A stretch of 64,000 bases of DNA from Candidatus Omnitrophota bacterium (GTDB taxonomy: Bacteria > Omnitrophota > Gorgyraeia > Gygaellales > JAQTUX01): positions 208,355 to 272,354 of the forward strand of contig JAQTUX010000002.1 in assembly GCA_028707125.1 (NCBI GenBank), in the 5' to 3' direction. The notes below the pieces were generated by a model that was not told where the DNA came from, did no database searches, and was given only the letters and a program-made list of their open reading frames with translations. The position numbers and the translations under genes are program-made. The first letter of the stretch is position 1, and each line of letters begins with the position of its first letter. This document shows positions 6,412 through 64,000 of this stretch, piece by piece.

Positions 6412-7251
6412 TCAACTTAAATAATCTATCAGCCGAGAGACCGTGTCCTTAAGGTTCTTCCTGTGCACGATCATATCTATAAGCCCGTGTTCAAGAAGGA
6501 ACTCGGAGCGCTGGAAACCCTCGGGGAGCTTCTGGCGTATTGTCTGTTCTATCACGCGCGGCCCGGTAAAACCTATCAGCGCCTTCGGCTCAGCCATTAT
6601 GCAATCGCCTATACCGGCAAAAGACGCCATGATCCCCGCCATGGTCGGGTCGGTGAGCAAAGATATATAAAGCAGCCCCGCCTTATTGTGCCGGGCAAGG
6701 GCGGCCGTTGTCTTTGCCATCTGCATAAGCGAATACATCCCTTCATACATACGGGCTCCTCCGCCTGAACCGGACACGATCAACATGGGCAGCTTCATCT
6801 GCGTCGCCCTTTCTATGGCGCGGGTTATTTTCTCGCCTACGACAGAACCCATGGAGCCCATTATAAAACGCGAATCGGTCACCGCGATCACGGCAGGCCT
6901 GTCATTGATCCTGCCCTCGCCCGTAACCACGGCCTCTTTCAAGCCCGTCGCCTGGACATCCTGCTCCAGCTTATCTTTATATGTCTTGGGCCCCTTAAAA
7001 TCCAGGGGGTCTTGCGAGACCATATCCCTGTCGCATTCTTTGAAAGACCCCGCGTCTAAGATCTGTTCAATACGTTCGTAGGCGCCCAGCTGAAAATGAT
7101 AGCCGCATTTGGGGCAGACCATCAGATTCTCCTTCAATTCCTTATTATATATGGCCTGCTGGCACTCCTCGCACTTGGTCCATAACCCGTCGGGAATACC
7201 CTTCTTTTTGAATCTTACTATGGTATATTTCGGTTTACCGAATAGAGCCAT
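6412..7251 (-). CDS. accD: acetyl-CoA carboxylase carboxyltransferase subunit beta
   Basis: N-terminal Cys4 zinc ribbon (CEECQQ...CPKCGYH) followed by a carboxyltransferase domain. Confidence 0.85.
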   Translation of the reverse strand: MALFGKPKYTIVRFKKKGIPDGLWTKCEECQQAIYNKELKENLMVCPKCGYHFQLGAYERIEQILDAGSFKECDRDMVSQDPLDFKGPKTYKDKLEQDVQATGLKEAVVTGEGRINDRPAVIAVTDSRFIMGSMGSVVGEKITRAIERATQMKLPMLIVSGSGGGARMYEGMYSLMQMAKTTAALARHNKAGLLYISLLTDPTMAGIMASFAGIGDCIMAEPKALIGFTGPRVIEQTIRQKLPEGFQRSEFLLEHGLIDMIVHRKNLKDTVSRLIDYLS

Positions 7252-7253
7252 GC

Positions 7254-8531
7254 CTAATCGAATTTATGGATAGTCAACCCGGTCAGGATCTTCGGATAGA
7301 AGAAGGTTGACTTAGGGGGCATCTTCTCCAGTTTTGACGCCACCTTTAATAACTGATTTATCTTAATGGGATTCAGGATAAAAACCAATTCCGCGTCATC
7401 CCTGTCCACGGCGTTTATCGCCTCATCCGCGCTATGCATATAAGATATCTTATCGTAATCTGTAAATTCAATGCCCAGCGCCCCCTTCAATATCAGGTAA
7501 TTAAATACGGTGACGTCCAGGCCCTTGAATTCCTTCGGTTTATCGATCTCAATTATTCTATCTAAAATAACCCCGTCCTTCAAGCGAATATAGGAGAATT
7601 TATTCTTTCTATACAGCACAAACGCGCAGCAATTATCGCGTGATCTTCTAAGGAGCGAGAACGCCGACTGCCTGCTCACGCCGGACTCTATATCAAAGTA
7701 ACGCGAAAGCGCCCCCTCCAGACCGGAAACGGTATTCCTGTCCAGGCCCCTGATAAGCCGGTGAATAGGCAGTATAACCAGCCCGTCTGAATCAGCGGCG
7801 GTAAAATAAGACATTATATAATTAACGGGGGCATCGTCTCCCAGCCCCGGGTCGGCCTTCTTTTGTTCCATCAGATAGTTACATGCCACCTCAAAGCGAT
7901 GGTGGCCATCGGCAATAAACACCGGCTTCTTTCTCATCTTTCTGGTTACAAGACCGATCGATTCCTTATCCTCAAGCCGCCAGAGTTGGCTCTCTATGCC
8001 CTCTCTGTCTTTGATCTTCAAAAGCGGCTTGCCCTTTCTAACGCATTTATTAAATACCCGCTCTATGATCTTTTCCTTGTCCTTGAACAGGATAAATATG
8101 GGGCTTAAGTTCGCCCGCACCTTTCTCAGCAGCTGAAGGCGGTCCTCCTTCGGGGCGAGATTTGTGTGCTCGTGCGGCAGTATGCCCCGTTCCTGCGAAA
8201 GCTTGAGCAGCGCGATAAAACCGACGCGCATTACCTTCCTGCCCTCAAACAAAAATGTCTGCCTTAAAAAGTATATCCCTTCGGAATCGTCCTTGAGGAG
8301 CACCCGGCCCCTTAACCATTCGCTGAATTGTCCGGCGGCGGCGGAATATTTATCTCCGGCAGCGTTGTCCCCGGGGAGGATAAGATTTATTATATTATAT
8401 TGGCTTTGGCCACGGTAGGTATCGGTGTCCTCCGGGCCGATAACATCGTAAGGCGGGCAGACGACCGTGGCGGCGTCTTTTACCTTAGATCGATTATAAC
8501 GGACAGCGCTAAAGGGCTTTACGTCGGCCAT
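7254..8531 (-). CDS. DUF1015 family protein
   Basis: N-terminus M-x-x-V-K-P-F-x-A-V-RYN and a length near 425 aa are typical of DUF1015. Abuts the radical SAM gene upstream with a 0-nt gap. Confidence 0.5.
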   Translation of the reverse strand: MADVKPFSAVRYNRSKVKDAATVVCPPYDVIGPEDTDTYRGQSQYNIINLILPGDNAAGDKYSAAAGQFSEWLRGRVLLKDDSEGIYFLRQTFLFEGRKVMRVGFIALLKLSQERGILPHEHTNLAPKEDRLQLLRKVRANLSPIFILFKDKEKIIERVFNKCVRKGKPLLKIKDREGIESQLWRLEDKESIGLVTRKMRKKPVFIADGHHRFEVACNYLMEQKKADPGLGDDAPVNYIMSYFTAADSDGLVILPIHRLIRGLDRNTVSGLEGALSRYFDIESGVSRQSAFSLLRRSRDNCCAFVLYRKNKFSYIRLKDGVILDRIIEIDKPKEFKGLDVTVFNYLILKGALGIEFTDYDKISYMHSADEAINAVDRDDAELVFILNPIKINQLLKVASKLEKMPPKSTFFYPKILTGLTIHKFD

Positions 8532-9590
8532 CTAAAGAAAGTTCTTATGTTCTCTGGGTTGAGATATATTCCATAATATCTGATTAAAGGTGTTATCGCG
8601 GCAAAGCGGGATACAATCGGCAAAATCAATGCGCCCCACCGCCTTCATCCTTTGCTCCGAATTCCAGATATCCTTGAAGGCGCTCTTGTTCAGGTCGCCT
8701 ATGCAATATTTCCGGTTTCCCCTCATATGGCAGCACAGGTACATTTTGCCGTCCGCGCCCACTACGGTCGCGAATTGGTGGCCGAAGCACCTGCCGTAAT
8801 TGCGGCCGTAATCCTTATGTTTCATCATCTCGTATTTATGCCGGGAAAATAAAACGCTGAAATCTTCACAGTCCTCTTTGAGCGCCTCATTCAGCTCTTT
8901 TTCTATGTCCAGCAGATCGTAGTAAAACCTGCCGTTATTATGGATCTGCATCGGCCGGAATTGAAGATAGTCCACGCCTATCTCTTTAAACAATTCCGCG
9001 GCCCTGCGCATGTCCTTTCTGGTGTACCTGCTGGTAAGAAAGCCCACGCCGACCGTGACAGAGGCGGCAAATTGCCGTTTTTTCTCTACCAGCATTCTTA
9101 TCTTCTTCAGCAGCTTGTTAAAGGCCTCCCTGCCGGACCCGTGCGTCTTTTTATACACGGAGGCGCTCGCGGCATCAACCGACACGCGTATCCAGAGGCA
9201 ATTCTGTATTAAGATCTCGGCTATGCGCTCTGTTATCAGGGCGCCGTTTGTTATAAAGCCGACATCCATGCCCAGCTTCCTGGACAACACTACCATGGCG
9301 GCTGTCTTCGGGTTGCATAACGGCTCTCCTCCGCCGGTAAATATCAGGCCTCTCACCGCCGCTTTTGCAAGCTGCCTCAATATCTTCTTTGCCAGCCCTT
9401 CAGGAAGTAAGTCGTTTTTGCTGTCCCGGAAATACATTCCGCTGCATTGCGGGCATCTATGGTTGCATATGTTGGACATATCAAATTCAACTGTAATAGG
9501 AGGGGGGTTCTCCCCTCTCGTCCAGGCGGACACCCTGTCCAGATGTTTCAATATCTTATCGGAACTGAATTGTTTTACGTCAAAATTCAT
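8532..9590 (-). CDS. radical SAM/SPASM-domain protein (paralog 1 of 3)
   Basis: CNHRCPQC CX3CX2C motif about 40 aa from the N-terminus, a GGGEP SAM motif, and a C-terminal Cys-rich SPASM-like region (...C...GDL...FKDIW...C..LC). Clearly paralogous to the ORFs at 55495-56625 and 59401-60465. Confidence 0.75.
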   Translation of the reverse strand: MNFDVKQFSSDKILKHLDRVSAWTRGENPPPITVEFDMSNICNHRCPQCSGMYFRDSKNDLLPEGLAKKILRQLAKAAVRGLIFTGGGEPLCNPKTAAMVVLSRKLGMDVGFITNGALITERIAEILIQNCLWIRVSVDAASASVYKKTHGSGREAFNKLLKKIRMLVEKKRQFAASVTVGVGFLTSRYTRKDMRRAAELFKEIGVDYLQFRPMQIHNNGRFYYDLLDIEKELNEALKEDCEDFSVLFSRHKYEMMKHKDYGRNYGRCFGHQFATVVGADGKMYLCCHMRGNRKYCIGDLNKSAFKDIWNSEQRMKAVGRIDFADCIPLCRDNTFNQILWNISQPREHKNFL

Positions 9591-9952
9591 TTAAAGTGAA
9601 AGAATAGGACCGCTAAAAAACCGCCGAGCGCGTCAAAGCAGACGTCTAAGAAAGAAGGGTCCCTCAGGGGGACGAATGCCTGGTGTAACTCGTCGGTTAT
9701 GCCATAAAATAATACCAGAATAAAACTGAATAAGTATTTCTTTTGATCTGATAAAGACGGCGCGGCCTTATAGAATGCCCTCAGCAGCAATATGCCCAAA
9801 ATCAGATAAACCAGGGTATGAAGCACCTTGTCCTGAAAAACAAACCACGGCTTAATATCCGCGCCCGGTATAGAAGAGCCGCAGAATATAAGGGCCGCCC
9901 ATATTAATGCCGGCAGCCAGGGAAGAAACCTGCCGTATGTATTCTCAGGCAT
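9587..9952 (-). CDS. VanZ-like family membrane protein
   Basis: Small polytopic membrane protein with a DKVLH...Y and TDELHQAFVPLRD pattern typical of VanZ-like proteins. 4-nt overlap with the radical SAM gene. Confidence 0.6.
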   Translation of the reverse strand: MPENTYGRFLPWLPALIWAALIFCGSSIPGADIKPWFVFQDKVLHTLVYLILGILLLRAFYKAAPSLSDQKKYLFSFILVLFYGITDELHQAFVPLRDPSFLDVCFDALGGFLAVLFFHFK

Positions 9953-17394: not shown

Positions 17395-18183
17395 TCAGGG
17401 ATAGATCCTGGTAGGATACCCGAGTCCGGCGAGCTGGCGCTCCAGTTTCAAGGCTTCGCTGCGGCTTTTTACCTTGCCTACCCTTACCTTATAAAATTTT
17501 CCCGAACCGCCGTTCTCCTCTACCACGTAACTGGAGAACCCTTTCTTCTTAAGCGCGCCCTTCAGCTTCTCCGCGTTGGCGCTGCCTTGAAAAGCGCCGA
17601 CCTGGACCGTAAAAAAATCATTGCCCTCCTGAACGCTCCTGGAAAGGCGCGATTCTAAACTCAAAGGAAAATCCCGGCTTAGGGCGTCAAAATACGTCCT
17701 GGATCCCTGCCAGTCCCCTTGTTTCATACAGGCCTGCGCCAGCTTATAATAAGCAAGCGGCTTGATGTCCGAGCCCGAGCGGTCCTTGACTATATAAGCG
17801 TAACTCTCCCTTGCCTTCCGCAGGTCGCCGGCCAGCATATGCACATCTCCTCTTGAAACACAGGCATCAGCGACTAATTCGCTCTGGGGATACTCGTTTA
17901 TTATGATATCAAAGATATCTCCCGCCCGGAGAAGGTTGCCCGCCTTCATATAGCTTATACCTAAAATATAATAGAGCCGGTCCAGCTCGCGGTGGTCCTT
18001 ATACCGGGCGAGCAATGCCTCACACTCATCTATCGCGGAAAAATAGTCCTCGCTTAAGAAATATACTTCCGCCTTGTCAAGGTTCAGAGCATAAGAAGAA
18101 AAGGTAAAAGTAAAAAGTAAAAAGGTAAAACTTAGAAACATAAGACAGATTTTTTTAAACCGCCTTGAATTACTTTTCATCAC
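17395..18183 (-). CDS. TPR-repeat protein with C-terminal SPOR domain (signal or anchor at N-terminus)
   Basis: Hydrophobic N-terminus, TPR-like repeats, and a C-terminal SPOR signature (FTVQVGAF...A..L...L...G....YKVRVG). Confidence 0.7.
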   Translation of the reverse strand: MMKSNSRRFKKICLMFLSFTFLLFTFTFSSYALNLDKAEVYFLSEDYFSAIDECEALLARYKDHRELDRLYYILGISYMKAGNLLRAGDIFDIIINEYPQSELVADACVSRGDVHMLAGDLRKARESYAYIVKDRSGSDIKPLAYYKLAQACMKQGDWQGSRTYFDALSRDFPLSLESRLSRSVQEGNDFFTVQVGAFQGSANAEKLKGALKKKGFSSYVVEENGGSGKFYKVRVGKVKSRSEALKLERQLAGLGYPTRIYP

Positions 18184-19367
18184 TTTTGACTTTCTACTTT
18201 TAACTTTTTACTTTCTTTTGATATTTCTTTCTGCAATTCAAGGATCATTCTATGGCGCCTTTCTTTCTCTAACCTCGGCAGATCATCGGGAAACCGCGAC
18301 GCCTTCGCGTGAGGCCGCGCTGAATACTTGAATATATACGCCTTATCAAATCTTACCTTCTTTACGAGATCAAATGTTTCCTGAAAATCCGCCTCGGCCT
18401 CACCGGGAAAACCGACGATGATATCGGTTGTCAGTTCGCCGCCGAGAACGATCTCCCTGTATTTTGTTATTATATCCAAATAACGCTCTTTTGTATAGCC
18501 CCTATTCATAAGCTTCAGGATCCTGTTAGAGGCGGACTGAAGCGGCAGGTGCAGGTATTTCTTGAGCTTATCGCAGTCCCGCATCGCCAGGAACAGGTCA
18601 TCGCCGGCGTCCTTTGGGTGGCTGGTAATGAATGAAAATTGTTTGAGCCCCTTTACATCATTTACTAACCGTAATAACTGAGGAAAATTTATTGGCTCGG
18701 TTTTCAAATTATCTTTCCATTGATTCACATTCTGCCCTAGCAGCGTAATTTTAGTAATGCCGGCCTTAATATCTCCTTCTATCTCCTTAATGATATCCCG
18801 CGGGTTCCTATGCGTAAGTTTCCCGCGCGTATATGGCACAACGCAATAAGAGCAGAAATTCTCGCAGCCCTCGCTGATGACAACAAAGGCATGGTCTTTG
18901 TCCAGATGGAAACCGGTATGGTAGATCTCGTTGCCGCGCGATTCTCCGTCCAATTCATAGCGCTTCTTCTCAAGCAATCCTCTGTGTTTGTTTAAATCCT
19001 TAAGGATCTGCGGGATCTTCGCGATGTCGCGCGTTCCGGCTATAAAATCCACATTCGGCGCGCGGTTGAATATACCCTCGCGGTAACAATTCGCCATGCA
19101 GCCGACCACCCCGATGATCTTTTTGCCGCCCTTGGCCAAACTCCCCACCGCGCTCCAGACCTTATCCTCGGCGTGCTGACGCACGGAGCAGGTGTTAAAG
19201 ATTACGACGTCAGCGTCGGCTTCGTCTTCAACCAGCCGATATCCTGCCTGTATCAGGAGTCCGGAGATCACTTCAGAGTCTCTCGCATTCATCTGGCACC
19301 CGAACGTGCGTACGTACACTCTAAGGCCCTTATGTGCATCTTGGGTTTTACTTGGCTTAACAGACAT
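18180..19367 (-). CDS. miaB: MiaB-family radical SAM methylthiotransferase, apparently lacking a C-terminal TRAM domain
   Basis: UPF0004 N-domain with FGCQMN and a radical SAM core (CxxxCxxC, seen as CENFCSYC). Ends right after the linker helix at 395 aa. Adjacent to miaA. Confidence 0.8.
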   Translation of the reverse strand: MSVKPSKTQDAHKGLRVYVRTFGCQMNARDSEVISGLLIQAGYRLVEDEADADVVIFNTCSVRQHAEDKVWSAVGSLAKGGKKIIGVVGCMANCYREGIFNRAPNVDFIAGTRDIAKIPQILKDLNKHRGLLEKKRYELDGESRGNEIYHTGFHLDKDHAFVVISEGCENFCSYCVVPYTRGKLTHRNPRDIIKEIEGDIKAGITKITLLGQNVNQWKDNLKTEPINFPQLLRLVNDVKGLKQFSFITSHPKDAGDDLFLAMRDCDKLKKYLHLPLQSASNRILKLMNRGYTKERYLDIITKYREIVLGGELTTDIIVGFPGEAEADFQETFDLVKKVRFDKAYIFKYSARPHAKASRFPDDLPRLEKERRHRMILELQKEISKESKKLKVESQK

Positions 19368-20932
19368 TCTATATCTTCCTTTGGCAATAGTGTTCTGAAC
19401 GGTTCATACAAATCAACTTCTGTTATAACTCCTTCTTTCACAACGATTTTCTTAAACACCAATCTCAGGAGTGCCTTCTTCTCAAAGATGGATAGATTAG
19501 TCCGAGCTTTGGCGGGGTTATTCAATACAGAAGTCAGGAGGTTATTATATTCCTGAGAGGCTTCTTTTTCAATCAATTTCATTTCCAAACCCCTGATTTG
19601 CCGTTTTAATTTATCGTCCTCGTCCTTTAAGGGCTGCTGCGACCCCTTGTAAATCTCCTGACTGATACCACCGTCCAGATAAATCGCAGTAAGTTTCTTT
19701 TGTTTTTCGTGGTTATCATTAAGGGCCTTGCGGGCATTGTAAAAGGCCGCAATAATTTCATCGGACGGGTCTCCGGCCACTTTAAGCAGCTCAGTGTAAC
19801 GCTTTTCTTTTACGGCATTGTGGGCTGCTGCCTTTTCTAATACCTCAAGAGCAAATTCATCGTACGAAGCCGCCACTATATTTCTGTTATTACATTCAAT
19901 GCCTCTTGTTTCGCCTTTAAGCCGGCACCTGTACCATTTCTTTCTTTCCCCTGTCTTTCGGTTCGCGGTATTCGTCATCCCCAGATAGCTGCTTCCGCAA
20001 ATTCCGCATCTTAAAATCCCCGTTAACAGATGTTCGTACTTGTTGAAAATTCTACGAATTGGTTTTCTGTTGTTTGCCAAACGCAACTGCACCTTCTTAA
20101 AGTCCTCATCGGTTATTATGGGCGTATGCGCGCCTTGGGCTTCAACAGTATCCGAGACCTTTCCGGGTAGATAACGGTAACCTTTACCATAACCGCCTTT
20201 TGTCTTTTCCTTCTTACTGTAATGCCGGCGGTTCCATATCAACTTGCCCGTATAAACCTTGTTCTTGAGAATGTCGCAGATTAACTTGCTGTGGAATTTT
20301 ATCCCTGTTCTGGTTTTGTAACCCATGTGATATAAATGGGCCGTAATCTCTGAGGTTGTTTTGCCCAACAGATACATGGAATAGATAGTTTTGACAATCT
20401 CTGCCTGTTCAGGCACAACTTCCAACAGCTTCTTTTCCTTATTATAGTGATAACCGTACGGTGCAAATCGTGCACCTTGCCAATGACCGGCCTTTACGCC
20501 TTTAATCATACCGGGAAAAACTCGTTCCTTGATTCTGTTCCGTTCAAATTCAGCAAAGCTGCCCAACTGCTGAAACATTAAATTGCCAGCCGAGGTTGAA
20601 GTATCAAATGGCTCAGTGGCTGACTTAAAAGCAACCTCTTTTTCTGCAAGTTCCTCTACCAATGAAATCAAATCTTTTAACCGTCTGCTAAATCTATCAA
20701 TCTTATATACTATTACCAAACCAAATTTTCCGTTTTTAACATCTGAAAGAAGCTGCTGAAGCGCAGGCCGCTCTTTTGTATATCCGCTTATACCCTCGTC
20801 TTTGTATATTTTATACACTTGATATTGTTCACGCTTAGCATACCCACACAGGTATTCCTCCTGTACTTCAAGGGAATAGCCTTCTCTTGCCTGGTCTTCA
20901 GTACTAACTCGTATGTAAATCGCAACTTTCAT
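19289..20932 (-). CDS. large serine recombinase (phage/ICE-type integrase)
   Basis: N-terminal resolvase catalytic domain (IYIRVSTEDQ), a recombinase domain, and a Cys zinc-ribbon region (CGICGSSY...C). 547 aa. Confidence 0.85.
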   Translation of the reverse strand: MKVAIYIRVSTEDQAREGYSLEVQEEYLCGYAKREQYQVYKIYKDEGISGYTKERPALQQLLSDVKNGKFGLVIVYKIDRFSRRLKDLISLVEELAEKEVAFKSATEPFDTSTSAGNLMFQQLGSFAEFERNRIKERVFPGMIKGVKAGHWQGARFAPYGYHYNKEKKLLEVVPEQAEIVKTIYSMYLLGKTTSEITAHLYHMGYKTRTGIKFHSKLICDILKNKVYTGKLIWNRRHYSKKEKTKGGYGKGYRYLPGKVSDTVEAQGAHTPIITDEDFKKVQLRLANNRKPIRRIFNKYEHLLTGILRCGICGSSYLGMTNTANRKTGERKKWYRCRLKGETRGIECNNRNIVAASYDEFALEVLEKAAAHNAVKEKRYTELLKVAGDPSDEIIAAFYNARKALNDNHEKQKKLTAIYLDGGISQEIYKGSQQPLKDEDDKLKRQIRGLEMKLIEKEASQEYNNLLTSVLNNPAKARTNLSIFEKKALLRLVFKKIVVKEGVITEVDLYEPFRTLLPKEDIECLLSQVKPKMHIRALECTYARSGAR

Positions 20933-21780
20933 TCTTGGCCTGTTTAGTGTCTTTCTTTCGCATCTTTTCTAATAGTAAATTGAGGAACCGTACGTCTGCC
21001 TGATGCAGAATATGCACCAACTCATCAAGCCGGTATTCCGTATCGTTAATTTCAACACCTTGTTCTGTATCAATGGTAGCTTGCATTTCATACCTTAATT
21101 AGTATTCATCCGGAAACAGTACGCAAGTTGAAGAACGGTCTGCCTCCGTAATAATCCATATCTTTTTGTCACGATAATTGTACGAGGAAAACAGGCGCAA
21201 GTATTTGCCAATGGCGAATTCATTTTCTCTTTTGTCCTGTTCGTCCATATCACCCCAATCACCCGAAACATGCCGCTTCAGACAGCCGGTAACAAACTTT
21301 GCGAAGCTTGCGTTGTCGGCCAACGCATCATTAATCCCTCTTGTACAAACTACGCGCCCCAGCACAAACAATCCCATTTTGCCCTCCCTCTTGAATCCCT
21401 CTTACAAATGAGCCAAAATTGACCACAGTAGCCCACACGTGACCACAAAAATCTGTAGCCGAGGCCTTCCCCCCGCCCTCCACCTGTATTCAATTTGTCG
21501 CGCTCCTCGTTAGTGATTACTATCAGTAAGTTACGATAGAATTGTAGATTTCTTTATTTTGCCAGCTTTTTATCGACTCCTCTTCCAAGGCCTCTGCATA
21601 CCCTCTTCAATCTTTAAGTTTTTAAGCCAAATTAGCTTAACTCTCTTTTATATAGCAAGTTAGGTTGACTCAACCTGTCTTAAATCTTCAAGACAGCGCG
21701 GACAACTTTAAGACACTGTAAATATTTCAAAAAACATAGGTTACGGAATAACGGCTTAAAGACTTAAAAAATTAACCGGG

Positions 21781-23496
21781 TTAAGGCTGTGGCACTTGAT
21801 ACCGTTCAATCCAATTTCTAAGATTGTCCAAATTAAAAATGTAAACTCTCTGCCGGCCCTCGTCCTTAAACCTCCTTTGGGTAGAAACTATACCGATTTG
21901 TTTCAGCATATGAGTTAATTTGTTTTGCAACAATGCAAAACTAAACTCCTTAGATTTGGAAAAATAGCTCAAAACATAGCTCGCCCTATATCCGCGGAGA
22001 TTTGGTTTAAGAAAAAATGGTTCTTTATCTTTTAATAGGTTTTTTAATACAATCAATGTTTTGGTTAATTCATCCTGTACAATATCGTCATCCGCCTTAG
22101 ACTCTATAGCTTTATAACTAAATTCTGTCATCTGTTTAGTAATGAGGTCTTTAGAATTAGACAAATCATCAATAAGGTTTGCAAGGATAAAGATAGGCTC
22201 CCATATATCAAGGTCGCGATTGCCTAAATGCTCAATGCCGCGAATCAGCTTCTCTTCGTTATACCTTTTATAGATTTCATCGGCATGAGTAAGGACAAAC
22301 TGATACATCTGGTCTCTGGTGTCCTTTTGTAATTTTTGGATTTCTTCGCTCTGTTTATATCTTTTAATACTCTCCTCTTTCTTCTTTCTTATCATTGTAA
22401 TTTTTGTGACCCTGTCTTCTAATACGGGGTCGAGTTGTGATATTCCTCCAAGGCATTTTGGGCAATACGCAGAGAATGTCTCAGGGATAAAATTTCCATA
22501 TTTATCTTTTGCTAATCTTTTAATTTCGCCTGAACATGAAAAACCACTATTTAGAAGCGAAATAAAATCTCCGCTTAATTCCCTGTTTGCTTTTGTAAAA
22601 CTTTCTGCTTCATCAATAAATAATGTTCTTAAGTTAGCGTGGACATCGCGAAAAAGAGCTGCCATAGTTATGTTTGCAAGAGAACACCCGTTAAAGGATA
22701 GTGGAGCCATAATATCCATGAGTAGTGATTTCCCGCTACGCTTTGGTGCTGTAATCCAAAGGTATGGATAATATCGGAACATCTTGAAGCAGTAAGTTCC
22801 CATTAACCAAAGTGCCAAAAAAGCTGCCTGTTGGTCATTTTGGAATAAAATATACGTTCTTAAATAATCTACTATGGAAACAAAAAGCCGATGGGCATCC
22901 GGCCCTCCCTCTCTCTCAATAAATTCAATTACGCCTTTACTTGAAAAATTAGACACCTCTGTGCCTTCGGGCTCTAGTTTAAACCCTAATTCCTGTGCAG
23001 CCTTATAATAGGTAAGGATTTCCTTGCGCGATGTTAAAAGATACTTTCCGTCCTTTGACTTAAACATATAAAACATCCTCCCCTTCTTATAGTCTTGGCA
23101 TGGGTGTATTATTGTCTGCTCTTTTTCTTCTCCGAGATTTTTCTTTATTTTATCGATGTTGATTTCTTCAGGGACGGTATCGACCTGCTCCTGCGACTCC
23201 TCTTTTAACTTCATTACCCGTTTGAATATTTGTTCAACCTCCTTACCCGATATATTTATTGAGGAATCTTTACACTGAAAATGCTTTTTAAATTCCGTTT
23301 TAATGTATAACCTAGACGCCTCTTCCGGGATTTTAGATAAATAGAGCAATAATGGCATTGATTCTTCGATTAATGCTGTGGAGTGTATATTCTTGGGTAT
23401 GCGGCCCAATAGATAGTCGGGATATAATTGGGCTTTATCGACTAACTTTTCGAATCCCTGCTTTTTATGCACGATGAAGAAGTCATCTAGTTTCAT
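21781..23496 (-). CDS. P-loop NTPase, primase/helicase-associated (DUF3987-like)
   Basis: Walker A TAPKRSGKS and Walker B-like LFIDEAE. Its 571-aa size and its position next to a toprim-like gene fit mobile-element replication modules. Confidence 0.5.
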   Translation of the reverse strand: MKLDDFFIVHKKQGFEKLVDKAQLYPDYLLGRIPKNIHSTALIEESMPLLLYLSKIPEEASRLYIKTEFKKHFQCKDSSINISGKEVEQIFKRVMKLKEESQEQVDTVPEEINIDKIKKNLGEEKEQTIIHPCQDYKKGRMFYMFKSKDGKYLLTSRKEILTYYKAAQELGFKLEPEGTEVSNFSSKGVIEFIEREGGPDAHRLFVSIVDYLRTYILFQNDQQAAFLALWLMGTYCFKMFRYYPYLWITAPKRSGKSLLMDIMAPLSFNGCSLANITMAALFRDVHANLRTLFIDEAESFTKANRELSGDFISLLNSGFSCSGEIKRLAKDKYGNFIPETFSAYCPKCLGGISQLDPVLEDRVTKITMIRKKKEESIKRYKQSEEIQKLQKDTRDQMYQFVLTHADEIYKRYNEEKLIRGIEHLGNRDLDIWEPIFILANLIDDLSNSKDLITKQMTEFSYKAIESKADDDIVQDELTKTLIVLKNLLKDKEPFFLKPNLRGYRASYVLSYFSKSKEFSFALLQNKLTHMLKQIGIVSTQRRFKDEGRQRVYIFNLDNLRNWIERYQVPQP

Positions 23497-23498
23497 TG

Positions 23499-24143
23499 TT
23501 ATTTCTCCGGTAAATTAATTATTTTCACTATGGCCCCTTTGCCTATAAGCATCTCGGCAAGACACCTCTCGGCCAAAAAAACATTCTTATTGGTAAATTT
23601 ATCCGAATCGAAGACAATCTGAACTACGCGCCCCTTCAAGGCTATGTTGTCAAAATCCTCTACTGGCTCATGTCCACTCGACCAATTCCAAACCCCTGAA
23701 ATAGCGATTGCAAAGAAGCCTTCTTGGCAGGCCTTTAGTGCCTTTTTTTCGCCTTCCGTTAGGAAAATCGGGACATTCACATCATCAATAATCGGCCAAA
23801 CTTTCGGCGGAATGTAAAGACGGGATTTAACTCCTATAGGCCGTATATATTTACGGGACTTTTTACCTGCCACATCTTCCGGCAAAGGTATATCTAGCTT
23901 AAAATTTAAATCCTTTTCCAAGAAACCATCTTTACCTATATATGGTATAACGTAGCCGCCACCGACCCCTTGTTGCCGATTAAGTAAAGTTTTACTCTCT
24001 TCCGCTGAAGCTGAATATATACGCACCGCGAGAATCATTTCATCTAAAAGTTTAGATCTACGTAAGTCCGCCAAATGCTGTGGTAGCAAGACTTCCTTAA
24101 CGTGTTTCGGCCATTCCTTATTTAAGTGCTTAGGTTTAAACAT
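23499..24143 (-). CDS. toprim-like protein (DUF3854-like)
   Basis: IFLTEGEKKALKA (toprim E-G-x-x-K-A) followed by DSD acidic residues. Immediately downstream of the P-loop gene. Confidence 0.45.
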   Translation of the reverse strand: MFKPKHLNKEWPKHVKEVLLPQHLADLRRSKLLDEMILAVRIYSASAEESKTLLNRQQGVGGGYVIPYIGKDGFLEKDLNFKLDIPLPEDVAGKKSRKYIRPIGVKSRLYIPPKVWPIIDDVNVPIFLTEGEKKALKACQEGFFAIAISGVWNWSSGHEPVEDFDNIALKGRVVQIVFDSDKFTNKNVFLAERCLAEMLIGKGAIVKIINLPEK

Positions 24144-24202
24144 TTTATCCTCCTATTTACTGTATGCTTTGCGTGTCTTGCGCATATTAAGGTAAAAAAA
24201 TA

Positions 24203-24760
24203 TTATTTCCCGGTATCGGCCCTATTCTTTCTTTGGATTTTTACTTTTACGGTACGAGTCTCCTTAATTGTTTCTTCAATGAACTTATTTTTATCAATGC
24301 CGTGTGGGTCTTCTGCTCTTCCAAGAACTGATGCTAATTTTTCGATAATCCGTTTGGCAACCCGGTCATTTTCTACCTGAAATATGAAAGCTTGAGTCTT
24401 CCTGTTCTTGCAGAAACTATCGTAATAATGTTTTAAGAAGTCGCGGAAAACCTTTACTACTTCTGTCAGGTTTAGCGTATTCGTCAATGACATGGTAATA
24501 TCTTCAAGATCGAAATGAAGCATATTCTTCAATATAAATAAAGAGCAGAGCTGATCAATAATGCTTCCTTCAAAGTAAGCATTACGCCCGATATGAATAG
24601 GTTTTGGGATTACTCCTATTTCGCAATAATACTGTATAGTCCTCCGCGTTATCGCAATGCCTTTCTTCTTCAGAATGGCTACCACTTCATCAAGAGTAAG
24701 CCGGTTCTCTAATGGGGGTAATAAATCCGATATGGCTTCCTTAAGTCTATTGTCTGTCAT
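24203..24760 (-). CDS. MerR-family HTH transcriptional regulator
   Basis: N-terminal MerR HTH (LTLDEVVAILKKKGIAITRRTIQYY...IGVI). Confidence 0.6.
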   Translation of the reverse strand: MTDNRLKEAISDLLPPLENRLTLDEVVAILKKKGIAITRRTIQYYCEIGVIPKPIHIGRNAYFEGSIIDQLCSLFILKNMLHFDLEDITMSLTNTLNLTEVVKVFRDFLKHYYDSFCKNRKTQAFIFQVENDRVAKRIIEKLASVLGRAEDPHGIDKNKFIEETIKETRTVKVKIQRKNRADTGK

Positions 24761-25108
24761 TTTCTCCTCTGAACATATATTTAAACCTATGCAAAATACG
24801 CAATACTTACAGTAAGTTTACCATTTAATTCTTAGTTGTCAAGTATTTTTTCAAAGATTTCTTTGTGGCTAAGAAACTCCCATTTAAATAGGTTTCAAGC
24901 CTTCTCGTTATCAAAGGCACATTTAATCGCTGTCGTAATAACCACACGGAATAAATATACACATCCTAGGGTTAATATACATAACCCCGCGTATACTAAT
25001 GTATCACTGAAGGCCCCATCTTTTCTTACTTTCATTTTTGCACTCTCCTTTTTTAAATTCTATTCTCTAACAAACAACCGAACATTATTTTGTCCTTCAA
25101 TTCCACCC

Positions 25109-25657
25109 TTAGAAAACCCCCAATTTCTGGGGGGAGGATTTTTTGTCCTTAACGTAGCGCAAGAAATAACCTGACTTAGTCCTCTGCCCCTTATCCTTGC
25201 TTCCTGCGGGCCTTCCCAGCCTCTTTCCTTGCCTTAATGCCCTTGCTAGGCCGTCCATTGTCCTTGATACGATGAGTTCGCGCTCGTACTCGGCCAAAAC
25301 CATGAGCATCTTTAGAAACATCCGGCCCTCTGGCGTACTGGTGTTAATGTTCTGGGAAAGAGAAATAAAGTGAACGCCGCGATTTTTGAATTCTTCAAAC
25401 AGATTAAGCAAGTGCTTTAAGCTGCGGCCCACTCGGTCTAGCTTGTAGCAAACAACACAATCAATCTTGCCGGCGCGAATATCACCTAACAACTCTTCAA
25501 AAGCTGGTCGGTTATTGTCTTTGCCGCTAAAACCATGGTCGACGTATTCGCGAGTAATCTGATAGTTCATGCGGGTGCAGTAATCTTTTAACGGGATAAT
25601 CTGTGTATCCGTTCTTTGGTCTGAACTGCTAACTCTTGCATAAATTCCGACTTTCAT
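25109..25657 (-). CDS. small serine recombinase (resolvase/invertase family)
   Basis: MKVGIYARVSSSDQ catalytic Ser motif, a resolvase core, and a C-terminal HTH. Start trimmed to the internal Met of the track ORF 25109..25699. Confidence 0.85.
   Translation of the reverse strand: MKVGIYARVSSSDQRTDTQIIPLKDYCTRMNYQITREYVDHGFSGKDNNRPAFEELLGDIRAGKIDCVVCYKLDRVGRSLKHLLNLFEEFKNRGVHFISLSQNINTSTPEGRMFLKMLMVLAEYERELIVSRTMDGLARALRQGKRLGRPAGSKDKGQRTKSGYFLRYVKDKKSSPQKLGVF
25117..25147 (-). terminator. hairpin plus U-tract overlapping the resolvase stop (bidirectional terminator-like)
   Basis: CCCCCA-atttc-TGGGGG stem, flanked by T-runs on both strands (TTTTTTG on plus, TTTTCT on minus). Confidence 0.4.
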
Positions 25658-25677
25658 ATGGGATGCCCACCTTTCGT

Positions 25678-25727
25678 AAAATAAAACGGGCGAGGCCAAT
25701 CCTGTGGGGGATTTTGTGACCTCGCCC
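25678..25727 (-). terminator. Rho-independent terminator-like hairpin downstream of ORF 25882..26478
   Basis: On the minus strand, a GGGCGAGG...CCTCGCCC 8-bp GC-rich stem is followed by GTTTTATTTT. Confidence 0.45.
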
Positions 25728-25881
25728 TAATTCGTGCACGAATGTTAAATTTCTATATCCCCCACATTATCAATGGCTTACAACAATTATTATAACAAAA
25801 AAATGGGGGAATTGCAAAAGGTTTTTTAAAATAAATTGGCAGAAATTATTTTGATGTTACATCTTTAGAGGGGAGTATAAG

Positions 25882-26478
25882 TTACGGTATCGTCGTTTCC
25901 CGGTATTTGTCAGGGGTGACCTGCTCGCACAGTTTTAAAACTTGCTGGAACCGGTTACTTTCGCTCGTTATAAACGACGTGTCATCTTTATTCTTTTTTA
26001 TCGACAGAAGCTCTTTTAGTATTTCGCCCATACTTTTTACTATAACCCCATTCGCTTTAAACGATTTGAGCTGCATCGCTTCGTCTTTCAGACGTCCGTA
26101 AATAAACATTTTATCGTATTTCTTACCGAGGAAAAATTCAGCTTTTTGTTTGACGGATAAATCGTCGTATTTCTTCTTAATATAGTCTTTGACGGTTTCG
26201 CCGATTTGCTGTTGGTTTTTCTTACCGGGATCTCGGTCAAGATAGGCCATAGGGTCGCTGCTACACTGAACTTCCACATGCACGCTACCTTCTATTTTGC
26301 CGTTTCTGACTTTAACCGCGAGAATGTCGAGCTCCTTCCGACCGGATTTTAAGCCTTGCACGGCGAAGTAGCCTTGGGAAGCTAACCAGCCCGTTATTAT
26401 GTCCTCGAATAAATCTGCCATGTCTTTAAGCATAGCATAATAACCGGGAAGCGTAAAGAACAAAACACGAAGTGCCAC
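25882..26478 (-). CDS. hypothetical protein with a possible PD-(D/E)xK nuclease-like motif
   Basis: ELDILAVK...GSVHVEVQCS resembles a D...E.Q/K nuclease core (Mrr-like). Divergent from an XRE/C-protein-like gene with a palindrome between them. Weak call. The track start is a GTG; the true start is probably an internal Met. Confidence 0.3.
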   Translation of the reverse strand: MALRVLFFTLPGYYAMLKDMADLFEDIITGWLASQGYFAVQGLKSGRKELDILAVKVRNGKIEGSVHVEVQCSSDPMAYLDRDPGKKNQQQIGETVKDYIKKKYDDLSVKQKAEFFLGKKYDKMFIYGRLKDEAMQLKSFKANGVIVKSMGEILKELLSIKKNKDDTSFITSESNRFQQVLKLCEQVTPDKYRETTIP

Positions 26479-26482
26479 TTCG
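26468..26482. promoter_or_regulatory. 15-bp palindrome CGAAGTG-C-CACTTCG between divergent genes (candidate operator or C-box)
   Basis: Perfect 7-bp arms around a single central base, sitting between the nuclease-like ORF and the XRE HTH ORF. Confidence 0.4.
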
Positions 26483-26736
26483 TGGTAAAAACGACAATTT
26501 GGCGAGATAATTACTTTATGGCTATACCTACAATTAGGCTTAAATTTGCTCAGAAATTACGTGAGGCGCGCAGGAAGGCTAAATTGACTCAAGAAGAAAT
26601 GGCCGACCGCATCGAGTTCAGCGTCCGATATTATCAGATGTTAGAATCGAAAACTCCACCTGCGATTAAAATTGATAGCATAGAAAAAATCGCAGACGTG
26701 CTAAAAATAAATCCTGCCGAGCTGTTGAAGTTTTAA
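26482..26736 (+). CDS. XRE-family helix-turn-helix regulator (controller-protein-like, about 75-84 aa)
   Basis: AQKLREARRKAKLTQEEMADRIEFSVRYYQMLE is a Cro/C1-type HTH. The track start is a GTG at 26482. An ATG at 26518 is an alternative start. Confidence 0.7.
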   Translation: MVKTTIWRDNYFMAIPTIRLKFAQKLREARRKAKLTQEEMADRIEFSVRYYQMLESKTPPAIKIDSIEKIADVLKINPAELLKF

Positions 26737-27179
26737 TTCAACCCAAACTTTTTAGTAAAAGCAGAAGACATAATAGCTACTATTATACCAATAGCAATAC
26801 CAATGAAGAGCGTCCATATTCTATCTGATCTTCGTTGCCGTTCTTCTTCTAAATAGAGATCAGCTTTTGTTGTACAAAAGAAAAGCTGTTTATTAAAATC
26901 ATCCCTATTTATAATCTTTTGTCCGATATATTCGAATTCTCCTTTTCCAAATGATGCAGTGTATAACGTAATAGCTAATTCTCTATTCTTAGAATTGTAA
27001 ATATCTTTGCCATTCTGACTCATTATAGAATCAATATAACCACCTGTTATTAAATTAACGAAAGGATAAGCATCCCGGTGATCATTATATCTCTTAGGTA
27101 AGATTTTAATAATTTGACCTAAGTTCATTTCCTTTTTATCTCTAAGCTCTTTTAATATATTATGAGAAATGTTCTCCAT
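26733..27179 (-). CDS. hypothetical protein with C-terminal transmembrane helix
   Basis: 148-aa ORF in AT-rich island DNA, with a C-terminal hydrophobic segment (WTLFIGIAIGIIVAIMSSAF). No recognised domain. Confidence 0.3.
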   Translation of the reverse strand: MENISHNILKELRDKKEMNLGQIIKILPKRYNDHRDAYPFVNLITGGYIDSIMSQNGKDIYNSKNRELAITLYTASFGKGEFEYIGQKIINRDDFNKQLFFCTTKADLYLEEERQRRSDRIWTLFIGIAIGIIVAIMSSAFTKKFGLN

Positions 27180-27317
27180 AGATAAAACCCCACCAGATTT
27201 GTAATTTTTGTCTATCTGTCTACCGTAAAGCTCAGACCAGCCTTTTGTTTGTTCTTATTTGACCAAAAGGAACTTTTCTTTGCAGAGAATTCTTTTATTT
27301 ATTGTTTTTGCTAAGCC

Positions 27318-27524
27318 TTATCTTCTATGGCATTCCGGACAACAATACGCACAACCATCTGCCCTTGAATACCTTCTCTTAGCTTCTTGAACGGCACCGT
27401 GACAACTTGCAAAATTTCCTAAAGGTTCCCTGTTTTCAGGCTCAGGTAGCCAGTTACAGCTATAGTTATGGACCTCGTGATCACCGTTTGCTTGTGCTTG
27501 TTTATTTACGCAATATTGCGCCAT
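27318..27524 (-). CDS. small Cys/His-rich hypothetical protein (putative metal-binding)
   Basis: 68 aa with a C..C...H...C...GC.YCC.ECH pattern. Last gene of the lexA-like gene string. Confidence 0.35.
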   Translation of the reverse strand: MAQYCVNKQAQANGDHEVHNYSCNWLPEPENREPLGNFASCHGAVQEAKRRYSRADGCAYCCPECHRR

Positions 27525-27561
27525 AATTGACCTCCTTTTGATATGATTAATTTTGGTTAAG

Positions 27562-27780
27562 CTATATTAAAGGCTGACTATCAATATTATCACCTTCTCT
27601 CTTGTCCGGATTATCGCGTAGATAGTTTACACCATTAATTTTAACCGTATGATAACCGGGCAGATTACCATTTTTAACCATTTTGACTGCCTCTGTTCGC
27701 CGAACAACCCTGTCTCCAATCTTATAATGAGTGTTGCCGCCTGTATCATTTTCCTTTCTTCCTGTTATTCTTCTAGCCAT
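27562..27780 (-). CDS. DUF3892-like small protein
   Basis: YKIGDRVV...NGNLPGYHTV.ING..YLRDNPD pattern resembles DUF3892. Confidence 0.45.
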   Translation of the reverse strand: MARRITGRKENDTGGNTHYKIGDRVVRRTEAVKMVKNGNLPGYHTVKINGVNYLRDNPDKREGDNIDSQPLI

Positions 27781-27818
27781 AAATCCTCCTTTTCATGTTT
27801 TAGCATTCATTGTTAGTT

Positions 27819-28316
27819 TTATTCACTCTTCTCGTTCTGTTCATCTTTTCCAGGTGGCATACATACCTTACAAGGCACATAGCCTTTGCTTTTTGCTTCT
27901 TTAACAGAACTGAAAACTATTAAATTTTGAGGTTTGATTTTCTTAGCCCATCTGCACCATGTATAATGATATTTATTAGAATTAATGCTGCCTACGTAGA
28001 CAGATTCCTTTCTCTCTGTTTCAATGGCTTCTTTATTCTCTTGAGACCTCTGTGAGATAGCCTCATATTTTTGAGTATAATTCTGTTTTGGATAAGTTGG
28101 CTGTGAATCACTACAATTTGGATAATATGGCGCACATTTTGCGGAAAGGGGCGTCCCATCACAACATCTGCATCCACATACCCCACCATGATGAGAACAA
28201 CACCCACTTCTGGCTTCGGCAAATGGAGTATTATAAAACGACAAAAGAAATAAGATAAGGATGAATAATACGCTACTTTTCGATATTTTAATTTGGCTCA
28301 AAGCTATATTCTCCAA
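27819..28316 (-). CDS. secreted Cys-rich protein with C-terminal Ada-type zinc-binding-like motif
   Basis: Signal peptide (VLFILILFLLSFYNTPFAEA), a Cys cluster (CCSHHGGVCGCRCCDG), and a C-terminal KYHYTWCRWAKKI...FSS..EA...GYVPCKVCMP motif resembling the Ada_Zn_binding fold. Confidence 0.45.
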   Translation of the reverse strand: MENIALSQIKISKSSVLFILILFLLSFYNTPFAEARSGCCSHHGGVCGCRCCDGTPLSAKCAPYYPNCSDSQPTYPKQNYTQKYEAISQRSQENKEAIETERKESVYVGSINSNKYHYTWCRWAKKIKPQNLIVFSSVKEAKSKGYVPCKVCMPPGKDEQNEKSE

Positions 28317-28327
28317 ATTGATTATAT

Positions 28328-28966
28328 CTATTCTTTATGGCTCTCTTTGGGTATAACTGCTATAACAACACCTTGAATTTGAAAATCATCAGTTAAAATA
28401 ATCGGTTTGTGTCCTTCATTAGAAGATTTTGGTCTTAAAATAATCATATTTTGCGTACGGTGAAATTCTTTAATGGTCGCTTCCTCATTAATCAATGCTA
28501 CGACCCTATCTCCTTCATTGGCTGTTGACTGTTGTCTAACCAAAACAAGATCCCCATCGTTAATCCCTGCTTTATCCATAGAATCTCCCTGGGCATGTAA
28601 TAGATAATATTTTGACCCTGGCTTTGCAAGTGCAGTGGATACAGGAATAAATCCTTCTATATTTTCTTCTGCCAATATTGGCGTGCCGCAGGCTACGGTT
28701 CCAACTATTGGGATGTTCGTAGTTTGGGCATGCATCGAACCGAAATCCAAATCTCTAATAAGCTGGTAATCCCCATTTTTAAATTTCTTTATGACACCCT
28801 TTTCTTGAAGCTGCTCAAGTATATCCTGTACTGATCGCGGAGATTTGTAACTTAAATCAGCCATTAACTCCCTTATGGATGGAGCATATCCCTTGTGCAT
28901 AAGCCAGTTTCTAATATGACGAATAGCCTCTAACTGTTTCTTTGTTAAGCAATTCTCGTTCTTCAT
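28328..28966 (-). CDS. LexA-like repressor (S24 peptidase family)
   Basis: N-terminal winged HTH (PSIRELMADLSYKSPRSVQDILEQLQEKGVI). C-terminal S24 domain with Ser (GDSM) and Lys (KEF) catalytic-dyad context, plus the AQGDSM...GDLVLV pattern. Confidence 0.8.
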   Translation of the reverse strand: MKNENCLTKKQLEAIRHIRNWLMHKGYAPSIRELMADLSYKSPRSVQDILEQLQEKGVIKKFKNGDYQLIRDLDFGSMHAQTTNIPIVGTVACGTPILAEENIEGFIPVSTALAKPGSKYYLLHAQGDSMDKAGINDGDLVLVRQQSTANEGDRVVALINEEATIKEFHRTQNMIILRPKSSNEGHKPIILTDDFQIQGVVIAVIPKESHKE

Positions 28967-28982
28967 ACATACAATTGTATGT
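28967..28982. promoter_or_regulatory. perfect 16-bp palindrome ACATACAATTGTATGT (candidate operator of the LexA-like repressor)
   Basis: Abuts the lexA-like ATG, within the divergent region shared with the putative restriction endonuclease gene. Confidence 0.45.
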
Positions 28983-31435: not shown

Positions 31436-31444
31436 ATGCTTACC

Positions 31445-63988: not shown

Positions 63989-64000
63989 TAACCTCGGGCC

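Follow-up and report, generated by a model that had tools for sequence, protein, structure and literature searches.

What do three related radical S-adenosylmethionine (SAM) enzymes do in a single bacterial genome when two of them lie among sugar genes and the third stands in a run of housekeeping genes? The question arises in a 64,000-nucleotide (nt) stretch of DNA from a Candidatus Omnitrophota bacterium (contig JAQTUX010000002.1, positions 208,355 to 272,354; the window in what follows), in which a sequence-only reading had picked out three open reading frames (ORFs), here called c1, c2, and c3. It described them as paralogous radical SAM/SPASM enzymes, the product of a lineage-specific family expansion, that modify a sugar or a lipid and have a recurring VanZ-like partner. 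Comparisons with homologous loci, together with a structural model of c1, suggest that c1, c2, and c3 are probably nucleotide-sugar- or glycan-tailoring radical SAM enzymes with a twitch domain, and the sugars that they tailor are most likely destined for surface glycans. The genes conserved around the family, like the partners in its natural fusions, encode sugar enzymes.

All three ORFs lie on the minus strand, c1 at 8532 to 9590 (352 amino acids [aa]), c2 at 55495 to 56625 (376 aa), and c3 at 59401 to 60465 (354 aa). The end-to-end alignment attributed to them was borne out by pairwise BLASTP, in which they match over their full lengths at 28% (c1/c2; E = 4e-39), 30% (c1/c3; E = 5e-60), and 32% identity (c2/c3; E = 2e-60), a likeness far above chance and above generic radical SAM similarity. 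A family hidden Markov model (HMM) run against the ORFs of the window matched c1, c2, and c3 only, leaving a MiaB-like radical SAM gene at 18180 to 19367 unmatched. Pfam assigns to each of the three both Radical_SAM (PF04055; 64 to 67 bits, cutoff 29.5) and SPASM (32 to 43 bits), in both cases above the gathering score.

The three proteins share an N-terminal signature, a K-x3-H...W..G....P helix followed by CX3CX2C, and a C-terminal signature that comprises four cysteines and an H-x-N-F-[ILV] tail. In an alignment of 26 sequences from all three orthologue groups, the invariant positions (in c1 numbering) are K12, H16, R19, P31, C42, C46, C49, G88, N115, R135, Y208, Y265, C268, F273, C286, G298, C326, C330, N336, L339, W340, H348, N350, and F351. 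Most of the signature is retained in a wider set of 153 sequences (150 representatives at 50% identity plus c1, c2, and c3): K12 and H16 are each kept in 143, P31 in 146, N336 in 151, H348 in 141, N350 in 140, and F351 in 146; the four C-terminal cysteines are present in 150 to 153, and the terminal residue (I, L, or V) is likewise conserved. The C42/C46/C49 triad and G88-E89, a SAM-binding motif of the GGE type, persist in 148 to 151 of the 153, and c1, c2, and c3 are members of the radical SAM superfamily. The N- and C-terminal motifs first noted in the three copies are thus real and define the family, although the HKL and ER of the proposed N-terminal consensus are inexact for c1, which reads DKILKHLDRV. 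Members of the c1 subfamily have four additional invariant cysteines (C92, C131, C287, and C296) that do not occur in c2 or c3 and that could be further cluster ligands or hydrogen-atom donors.

The c2 gene is probably shorter than its ORF. Its database orthologues all begin at M10 of the ORF (position 56598), and an ATG at 56625 would overlap the adjoining glycosyltransferase gene by 35 nt, as opposed to 8 nt for a start at 56598; the true gene is probably 55495 to 56598 (minus strand), encoding 367 aa.

The family to which these proteins belong is large. Searched against 1.84 billion representatives, the family profile returned 2,609 clusters (50% identity) at E values of 1e-30 or lower, and among the best 150 of these, nearly all match it over its full length with at least 310 bits. 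There are 790 homologues of c1, the best 120 of which are 56 to 64% identical to it except for one at 97% and mostly carry Omnitrophota names; the c1 orthologue group as a whole ranges from 53 to 64%. For c3, the 4,443 homologues reach 71% identity, besides one exact match in Omnitrophica, and for c2 there are more than 6,380, with the best 120 at 74 to 80% identity and orthologues named for Omnitrophota, Patescibacteria (Wildermuthbacteria), Auribacterota, and Nitrospirota. Single linkage at 40% identity divided the 150 representatives and the three window copies into 13 groups, with c1, c2, and c3 falling into three separate groups of 19, 25, and 83 members, respectively. Since the paralogues are 28 to 32% identical to each other but 53 to 80% identical to their own orthologues in many genomes, and since they occupy separate groups, the duplications must be old. 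By this comparison, c1, c2, and c3 are ancient paralogues in three deep subfamilies and not a local burst, and they are functionally distinct. A single distinctive radical SAM subfamily, as had been proposed, agrees with the shared signature and the family profile, and its lineage-specific expansion does not.

Two c2-type proteins are interrupted near the cluster motif. In P0467, an intein with a LAGLIDADG domain is inserted approximately six residues past CX3CX2C, and in P0447, the BLAST alignment breaks at the same site, at an insert that carried no annotation. Apart from one protein from Candidatus Tagabacteria, the cluster members of distant family representatives are almost all metagenomic.

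The c2/c3 cassette and natural fusions

Both c3 and c2 belong to a cassette at 53.8 to 63.6 kb of the window, whose genes overlap or abut in the order short-chain dehydrogenase/reductase (SDR), HldE-like, GmhA-like, c3, E1 alpha, E1 beta, family 2 glycosyltransferase (GT2), c2, TIM barrel, and the membrane protein pair mem1/mem2, all on the minus strand. Their assignment to a sugar cluster was correct, and the two are fixed parts of a cassette that is widespread. Its first gene (62588 to 63580) encodes an SDR-type nucleoside diphosphate (NDP)-sugar epimerase/dehydratase that is kept in related loci and matches Pfam Epimerase and GDP_Man_Dehyd; its NCBIfam matches to GalE and dTDP-glucose dehydratase are below the cutoffs. 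The HldE-like bifunctional protein (61047 to 62666) has its nucleotidyltransferase at the N terminus (Pfam CTP_transf_like, residues 61 to 185) and its PfkB kinase at the C terminus (residues 406 to 518), the reverse of E. coli HldE, and scores 91 bits against a cutoff of 345 for rfaE domain I and 104 against 181 for domain II. The SIS sugar-phosphate isomerase that follows (60437 to 61015; Pfam SIS_2), which overlaps the start of c3 by 29 nt, resembles GmhA but reaches 96.6 bits with TIGR00441 (gmhA; cutoff 209). The pathway is heptose-like, but its assignment to the ADP-heptose pathway is not established: the gmhA and rfaE models score below cutoff, the HldE domains stand in the opposite order, and the cassette showed no gene resembling GmhB.

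Directly after c3 come the two subunits of a thiamine diphosphate (ThDP) enzyme. The E1 alpha-like subunit (58424 to 59443) matches Pfam E1_dh at 266 bits and TIGR03182 at 343 bits (cutoff 394), and the E1 beta-like subunit (57369 to 58421) matches Transket_pyr and Transketolase_C in Pfam and NF006667 at 334 bits (cutoff 321). The GT2 gene (56591 to 57364; Pfam Glycos_transf_2) shows weak NCBIfam similarity to ArnC, AglJ, and PgfS (about 41 bits; cutoff 529) and is followed by c2.

The recurrence of this arrangement was assessed in 112 loci (1.26 Mb) around orthologues of c1, c2, and c3, comprising 5 Pfam-annotated c1 contexts, 24 c1 loci from GTDB, 3 c3 contexts, and 80 metagenomic c2 loci. 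A GT2 gene adjoins c2 in 44 of the 80 c2 loci. When the 19 c2 loci flanked by 5 kb or more to either side are considered, the genes found within 7 kb of c2 are a ThDP enzyme (15 loci), c3 (14), GT2 (11), HldE-like (11), SIS (11), and SDR (9), and the loci designated L006, L007, and L008 provide Pfam-annotated examples of the cassette. Three ThDP architectures occupy the same slot: an E1 alpha/beta pair, a transketolase split into N- and C-terminal parts, and, when fused, an enzyme resembling acetolactate synthase (ALS). The split transketolase, accompanied by an additional RmlD-like reductase, occurs in L006 (9086 to 10809) and L008 (4686 to 6424), and ThDP enzymes are also encoded at 9068 to 11098 of L007 and in protein P0382. 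That these architectures are interchangeable suggests that one required activity has undergone non-orthologous replacement.

Among the remaining genes of the cassette, a xylose-isomerase-like TIM barrel (54822 to 55490; weak Pfam AP_endonuc_2 similarity, below cutoff) is an occasional member, with orthologues (49 to 65% identity) beside the cassette in L006, L033, L047, L061, and L063. The membrane proteins mem1 (54304 to 54825) and mem2 (53759 to 54298), each of approximately 175 aa, match no family at the Pfam gathering score; each seemingly starts with transmembrane segments and has a C-terminal part that is soluble. The pair lies beside GT2/c2 in 13 of the 80 c2 loci (e.g., L006, 14340 to 15388, and L008, 9176 to 10248) and may act as a flippase or an anchor. 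At the other end, upstream of the epimerase gene, a promoter-like site (TTGACA-17-TAAAAT, 63590 to 63618, minus strand) was recognized solely as an 11/12 match to a sigma-70-like consensus.

Natural fusions among the top representatives join the radical SAM protein to the same set of activities. A CTP_transf_like domain precedes it in three separate clusters, and further fusions link it to SIS_2, to an ALS-like ThDP enzyme, to a methyltransferase, to a GT2 (protein P0304), and, in a radical SAM-DegT aminotransferase-radical SAM protein, to an aminotransferase. Those with CTP_transf_like, SIS, ThDP, and methyltransferase partners are of the c3 type (41 to 49% identity to c3), and the GT2 fusion is of the c2 type (77% identity). 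The types of fusion therefore tie c3, whose subfamily is linked to nucleotidyltransferase, SIS, and ThDP genes, to the activation and skeleton-remodeling steps, and they tie c2 to glycosyl transfer.

Auxiliary cluster and predicted chemistry

The C-terminal domain of the family contains four conserved cysteines, C268, C286, C326, and C330, and neither the 26- nor the 153-sequence alignment contains another conserved C-terminal cysteine column or a CX2CX5CX3C motif. A full SPASM domain, with seven cysteines and two auxiliary clusters (AuxI and AuxII), is ruled out by this four-cysteine pattern, which lacks CX2CX5, despite the Pfam SPASM match. Twitch domains are shortened SPASM domains whose ligands serve one auxiliary [4Fe-4S] cluster (PMC9012708). 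Because there are four cysteines and no CX2CX5CX3C, the pattern indicates one auxiliary cluster, i.e., a twitch domain, and the four invariant cysteines should bind one auxiliary [4Fe-4S] cluster. The label of SPASM enzyme thus holds at the level of the Pfam match and not at that of the seven-cysteine domain. A profile of the C-terminal domain also matches the twitch domain of BtrN (E of about 0.005), as well as anSME and CteB, and the first two family cysteines coincide, with identical spacing, with two cysteines of the BtrN domain.

An AlphaFold2 model of c1, built from the 26-sequence alignment, has a mean predicted local distance difference test (pLDDT) score of 84.5 and a predicted template modeling (pTM) score of 0.87. 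It consists of an N-terminal helix (residues 10 to 24) bearing K12, H16, and R19, a partial TIM barrel, and, at the C terminus, a beta-hairpin with helices; its last four residues are of low confidence, and it has no predicted membrane segment. Foldseek searches of the PDB with this model returned DesII at the top (8HZV and 8HZY; E = 6e-16, TMq of 0.67 to 0.69), followed by SkfB, CteB, SuiB, viperin, anSME, BlsE (TMq of 0.66, TMt of 0.70), and MoaA. On a speculative view, candidates for binding the diphosphate and closing the active site are the basic residues that are invariant in the N-terminal helix, together with the invariant C-terminal tail.

Taken as a pathway, the cassette would begin with the GmhA-like isomerase and the HldE-like kinase/nucleotidyltransferase, which would make an NDP-heptose-like sugar. 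The SDR, c3, and the ThDP E1 alpha/beta pair would remodel the carbon skeleton of the NDP-sugar, and c2 would work with GT2, which would hand the sugar on, probably to polyprenyl phosphate; the two small membrane proteins may assist export. In the radical step, the reduced radical SAM cluster would cleave SAM, the 5'-deoxyadenosyl radical would take a hydrogen from a hydroxyl-bearing carbon of the sugar, and the auxiliary cluster would accept an electron, giving a keto-sugar. A role of this kind has been proposed for the auxiliary cluster of BtrN, which has four cysteine ligands (PMC9012708). The keto-sugar would then be an electrophile for two-carbon addition by the ThDP enzyme or for an aminotransferase such as DegT. 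Two-carbon branches are added to keto-sugars by the ThDP enzymes YerE and AviB1/AviB2 (PMC4753412). Extending this scheme, it is possible, but put forward only tentatively, that the cassette builds an undescribed branched-chain or chain-extended surface sugar in ultra-small uncultivated bacteria (Omnitrophota, Patescibacteria, and others), with the twitch radical SAM enzymes providing keto or radical chemistry on which the ThDP enzymes would draw to form C-C bonds.

Of the sugar- or lipid-modifying role originally suggested for the three enzymes, sugar modification is the best reading, in view of the cassette, the fusions, and the fold match to DesII. Several points nevertheless weigh against it. 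We infer the substrates (NDP-sugars, possibly lipid-linked for c2), the position from which hydrogen is abstracted, and the net reaction. Because the scores of the HldE-like and GmhA-like proteins are under the curated cutoffs, the sugar may be something other than a heptose, and the SDR of the cassette could supply a keto-sugar with no radical enzyme involved. DesII, which gives the best fold match, has no auxiliary cluster (PMC11434129) and is 15 to 16% identical to the family. The presence of two radical SAM enzymes per cassette suggests that at least one goes beyond simple dehydrogenation, and the local context of c1 in the source genome offers no functional clue.

Within the nucleotide-sugar reading, the chances are roughly even between the dehydrogenase step outlined above and epimerase, dehydratase, or cyclase chemistry. 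A separate account keeps the same substrates but replaces alcohol-to-ketone oxidation with radical epimerization, dehydration or deoxygenation of the kind associated with DesII and AprD4, or C-C cyclization; we consider it unlikely, but it fares best among the alternatives. DesII is a deaminase that can also be a dehydrogenase (PMC11434129), each cassette has two radical SAM enzymes and an SDR able to provide the keto group, and the four extra invariant cysteines of the c1 subfamily could donate hydrogen atoms. Set against these observations is the auxiliary cluster, since full ligation by cysteines is the pattern of the two-electron oxidizers BtrN, PqqE, and SuiB, as opposed to redox-neutral MoaA, whose auxiliary cluster has three cysteine ligands and one iron site left open (PMC9012708). 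A keto-sugar is, moreover, what both kinds of recurring partner need, the ThDP enzymes as well as a DegT aminotransferase.

More doubtful is a reading in which a lipid-linked sugar (e.g., a polyprenyl-phosphate sugar), or a lipid itself, takes the place of the soluble NDP-sugar as the substrate of c2 and perhaps of c1. The position of c2 beside GT2 and its fusion to GT2 in P0304, the likeness of GT2 to the polyprenyl-phosphate glycosyltransferases ArnC and AglJ, the paired small membrane proteins that follow GT2/c2, and the presence of UbiA and PMT_2 (ArnT-like) near some c1 orthologues are all in keeping with such a substrate. The GT2 similarity is, however, weak, at about 41 bits against 529; the radical SAM model lacks a predicted membrane segment; and adjacency to accD is not conserved.

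A role in maturing a ribosomally made, post-translationally modified peptide (RiPP), with SPASM-class enzymes modifying or cross-linking a small precursor, is very improbable. The Pfam SPASM matches and the similarity in sequence and fold to CteB, SkfB, SuiB, and PapB-type maturases would accommodate it, but there are four C-terminal cysteines only, without CX2CX5CX3C, the NCBIfam maturase models all score far below their cutoffs, and sugar enzymes make up the conserved neighbors and the fusion partners. Neither a RiPP recognition element nor a conserved small ORF was noticed, small ORFs not having been searched systematically.

Genomic surroundings of c1

The third copy, c1, lies at the end of a run of co-oriented housekeeping genes that reads hrcA, grpE, dnaK, dnaJ, a Zn-ribbon gene, VanZ, c1, DUF1015, accD, and an ABC ATPase, and its immediate gene order had been described correctly. 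The VanZ-like gene (9587 to 9952, minus strand; PF04892 and NF037970) overlaps the start of c1 by 4 nt, a DUF1015 gene (7254 to 8531, minus; PF06245, 251 bits) lies directly downstream, and accD, encoding the beta subunit of the acetyl-CoA carboxylase carboxyltransferase (6412 to 7251, minus; Pfam Carboxyl_trans and Zn_ribbon_ACC), comes next. A second VanZ-like gene (VanZ2; PF04892), whose 3' part occupies 63677 to 64000 on the minus strand (ORF, 63677 to 63988) before the window edge cuts it off, and whose whole product is 165 aa in the source genome (locus L113), lies upstream of the cassette. From these neighbors came the proposal that an enzyme acting on a lipid or a sugar had expanded within the lineage along with a VanZ-like (and DUF1015) partner. 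The 4-nt overlap with c1 and the position of the second copy, which shares the strand of c3 and lies 3.2 kb upstream of it, speak for this proposal, which is nonetheless extremely improbable in light of what related loci contain.

Homologues of VanZ, DUF1015, and AccD were absent from all 112 loci by tblastn at an E value of 1 or lower, apart from two spurious matches of 18 to 22 residues, and none was detected by phmmer in the 4,252 ORFs of at least 70 aa that these loci encode. Likewise, none of the six Pfam-annotated contexts contained VanZ (PF04892), DUF1015, or AccD. The VanZ queries recovered the two weakly similar window copies from each other in phmmer at 18 to 19 bits, indicating that the sensitivity of the search was adequate. 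The sequence-only reading had staked the partnership on conservation of VanZ adjacency in other genomes, and neither VanZ nor DUF1015 co-occurs with the family in the sampled loci, which refutes it.

The VanZ genes next to both loci do match PF04892, yet the second appears to belong to a different operon. In L113 (5390 to 6789), its start shares 4 nt with the end of a thioredoxin-reductase-like (Pyr_redox_2) gene, which is itself preceded by genes for glutaredoxin, rubrerythrin, PNPOx, and rubredoxin, and between VanZ2 and the opening gene of the cassette lies a 96-nt spacer that holds the promoter-like site. VanZ2 thus looks like the last gene of an upstream oxidative-stress operon and not a member of the cassette. 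The age of the duplications, with paralogues so much less similar than orthologues, also runs against the proposal.

Elsewhere, orthologues of c1 are usually found in GT2/GT9 glycan clusters. In 25 nonredundant loci, their neighbors include GT2 (14 loci), a heptosyltransferase-family protein resembling glycosyltransferase family 9 (GT9; 12 loci), and a carbamoyltransferase (7 loci); other radical SAM genes also occur nearby, as do Wzy_C, PMT_2, or UbiA in single Pfam-annotated contexts. Directly upstream of the c1 orthologue, 13 of the 25 loci encode a protein of approximately 350 aa without a Pfam match, and 5 more encode a half-size version. When the window was searched for these usual partners (the 350-aa protein, GT9-like, GT2, and carbamoyltransferase), none was present. 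The VanZ, DUF1015, and accD neighbors of c1 are therefore incidental, an accident of one genome, and should not serve to infer its function in annotation. By its family and by the neighbors of its subfamily elsewhere (GT2, GT9-like, carbamoyltransferase, and one uncharacterized gene), c1 would be the same kind of enzyme as c2 and c3. The approximately 350-aa protein (e.g., L021, 8929 to 9984) seems to be an internal duplication of a module of approximately 175 aa, which is present singly in five loci.

The remainder of the window includes a mobile or defense island at 19289 to 34883. It encodes a large serine recombinase (19289 to 20932), a DUF3631 protein (21781 to 23496), a small resolvase (25109 to 25699), a C5 DNA methylase (30059 to 31435), Vsr (31445 to 31849), and a SIR2_2-domain protein (32472 to 33524). 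A 328-aa unannotated ORF on the plus strand (29076 to 30062), which adjoins the methylase gene, may be a restriction enzyme. Scans of the 64-kb window for tRNAs and Rfam families returned no tRNA genes and no Rfam matches.

Relation to known systems

No NCBIfam family reaches its cutoff with c1, c2, or c3. The best match is TIGR04317, the tungsten-cofactor oxidoreductase maturase (77 to 101 bits, cutoff 380), and scores are lower for MoaA (TIGR02666/TIGR02668; 34 to 66 bits, cutoffs 284/325), DesII (TIGR04426; 34 to 49 bits with c2 and c3, cutoff 450, and not among the 25 families listed for c1), BlsE (TIGR04466; 43 bits, cutoff 400, c3 only), and anSME (TIGR03942; 41 bits, cutoff 349). Viperin had rightly been discarded (NF038283; 44 to 58 bits against 180), and its Foldseek TMq is 0.50 to 0.57. 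The ranking lends something to the idea that these are cofactor-maturation enzymes akin to MoaA or the tungsten-cofactor maturase, as do MoaA being the best PDB match of the family in sequence (E = 1e-12) and the invariant C-terminal tail, which recalls that of MoaA; the MoaA tail is essential. That idea is just as improbable as the VanZ partnership, with scores far under the 380 bits required for TIGR04317 and the 284 required for moaA, no molybdopterin or tungsten-enzyme genes in the examined contexts, and three cysteines and an open site in the MoaA auxiliary cluster (PMC9012708) versus four cysteines in the family.

Open-access literature searches found no paper on this radical SAM family or its cassette, nor any report that pairs radical SAM and ThDP enzymes in sugar biosynthesis, and we know of no such pairing. 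Sugar-tailoring radical SAM enzymes are few (DesII, BtrN, BlsE, and others) and come mostly from the antibiotic pathways of cultured actinomycetes and bacilli. Here, by comparison, is a large family with a clear signature that no NCBIfam family covers at its cutoff and whose c2 members are 75 to 80% identical across entries from several candidate phyla. Its fixed association with ThDP enzymes and its natural fusions point toward novel carbohydrate chemistry at the cell surface in unculturable organisms, and the family and its cassette together constitute a defined gene set for enzymology in uncultivated phyla.

Among the characterized enzymes, DesII shares with the family a radical SAM core, an N-terminal helical element, a C-terminal beta-hairpin with helices, and a nucleotide-activated sugar as its presumptive or known substrate. 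It acts on TDP-4-amino-4,6-dideoxy-D-glucose through an alpha-hydroxyalkyl radical, as a deaminase that can also be a dehydrogenase, and it differs in having just one [4Fe-4S] cluster and an N-terminal domain of six helices (PMC11434129), as opposed to the four C-terminal cysteines and one short N-terminal helix of the family. BtrN, a 2-deoxy-scyllo-inosamine dehydrogenase and the archetype of twitch radical SAM enzymes, resembles the family in its alignable twitch domain and carbohydrate-like substrate (PMC9012708), but it is approximately 250 aa long, is without the K-x3-H helix and the H-x-N-F tail, and uses a free aminocyclitol and not an NDP-sugar. BlsE, the cytosylglucuronate decarboxylase, is similar in fold and is a radical SAM enzyme of a nucleoside-linked sugar; it is 17% identical, catalyzes another reaction, and belongs to antibiotic biosynthesis. 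MoaA and TIGR04317, with a twitch-type architecture, are the best matches at the sequence level, yet the family scores three- to fourfold below their cutoffs and is not surrounded by cofactor-biosynthesis genes, and the three-cysteine auxiliary cluster of MoaA binds GTP (PMC9012708), whereas the family has four cysteines.

The closest parallels to the cassette are the branched-sugar systems of YerE (yersiniose), AviB1/AviB2, and Pau11/Pau12 (eurekanate and paulomycose), in which a ThDP enzyme is likewise encoded in a sugar-nucleotide cluster. These enzymes have been proposed or shown to transfer a two-carbon branch from pyruvate onto a keto-sugar (PMC4753412). They are either E1 alpha/beta-like pairs or single ALS-like proteins, and both architectures occur beside, or fused to, members of this radical SAM family. 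The cassette differs from the YerE, Avi, and Pau systems in containing two radical SAM genes plus the HldE- and GmhA-like genes; to our knowledge, pathways of the YerE/AviB type rely on NAD-dependent dehydratases and do without radical SAM enzymes. The family itself resembles the DesII/BtrN/BlsE group of carbohydrate radical SAM enzymes and is a member of none of them.

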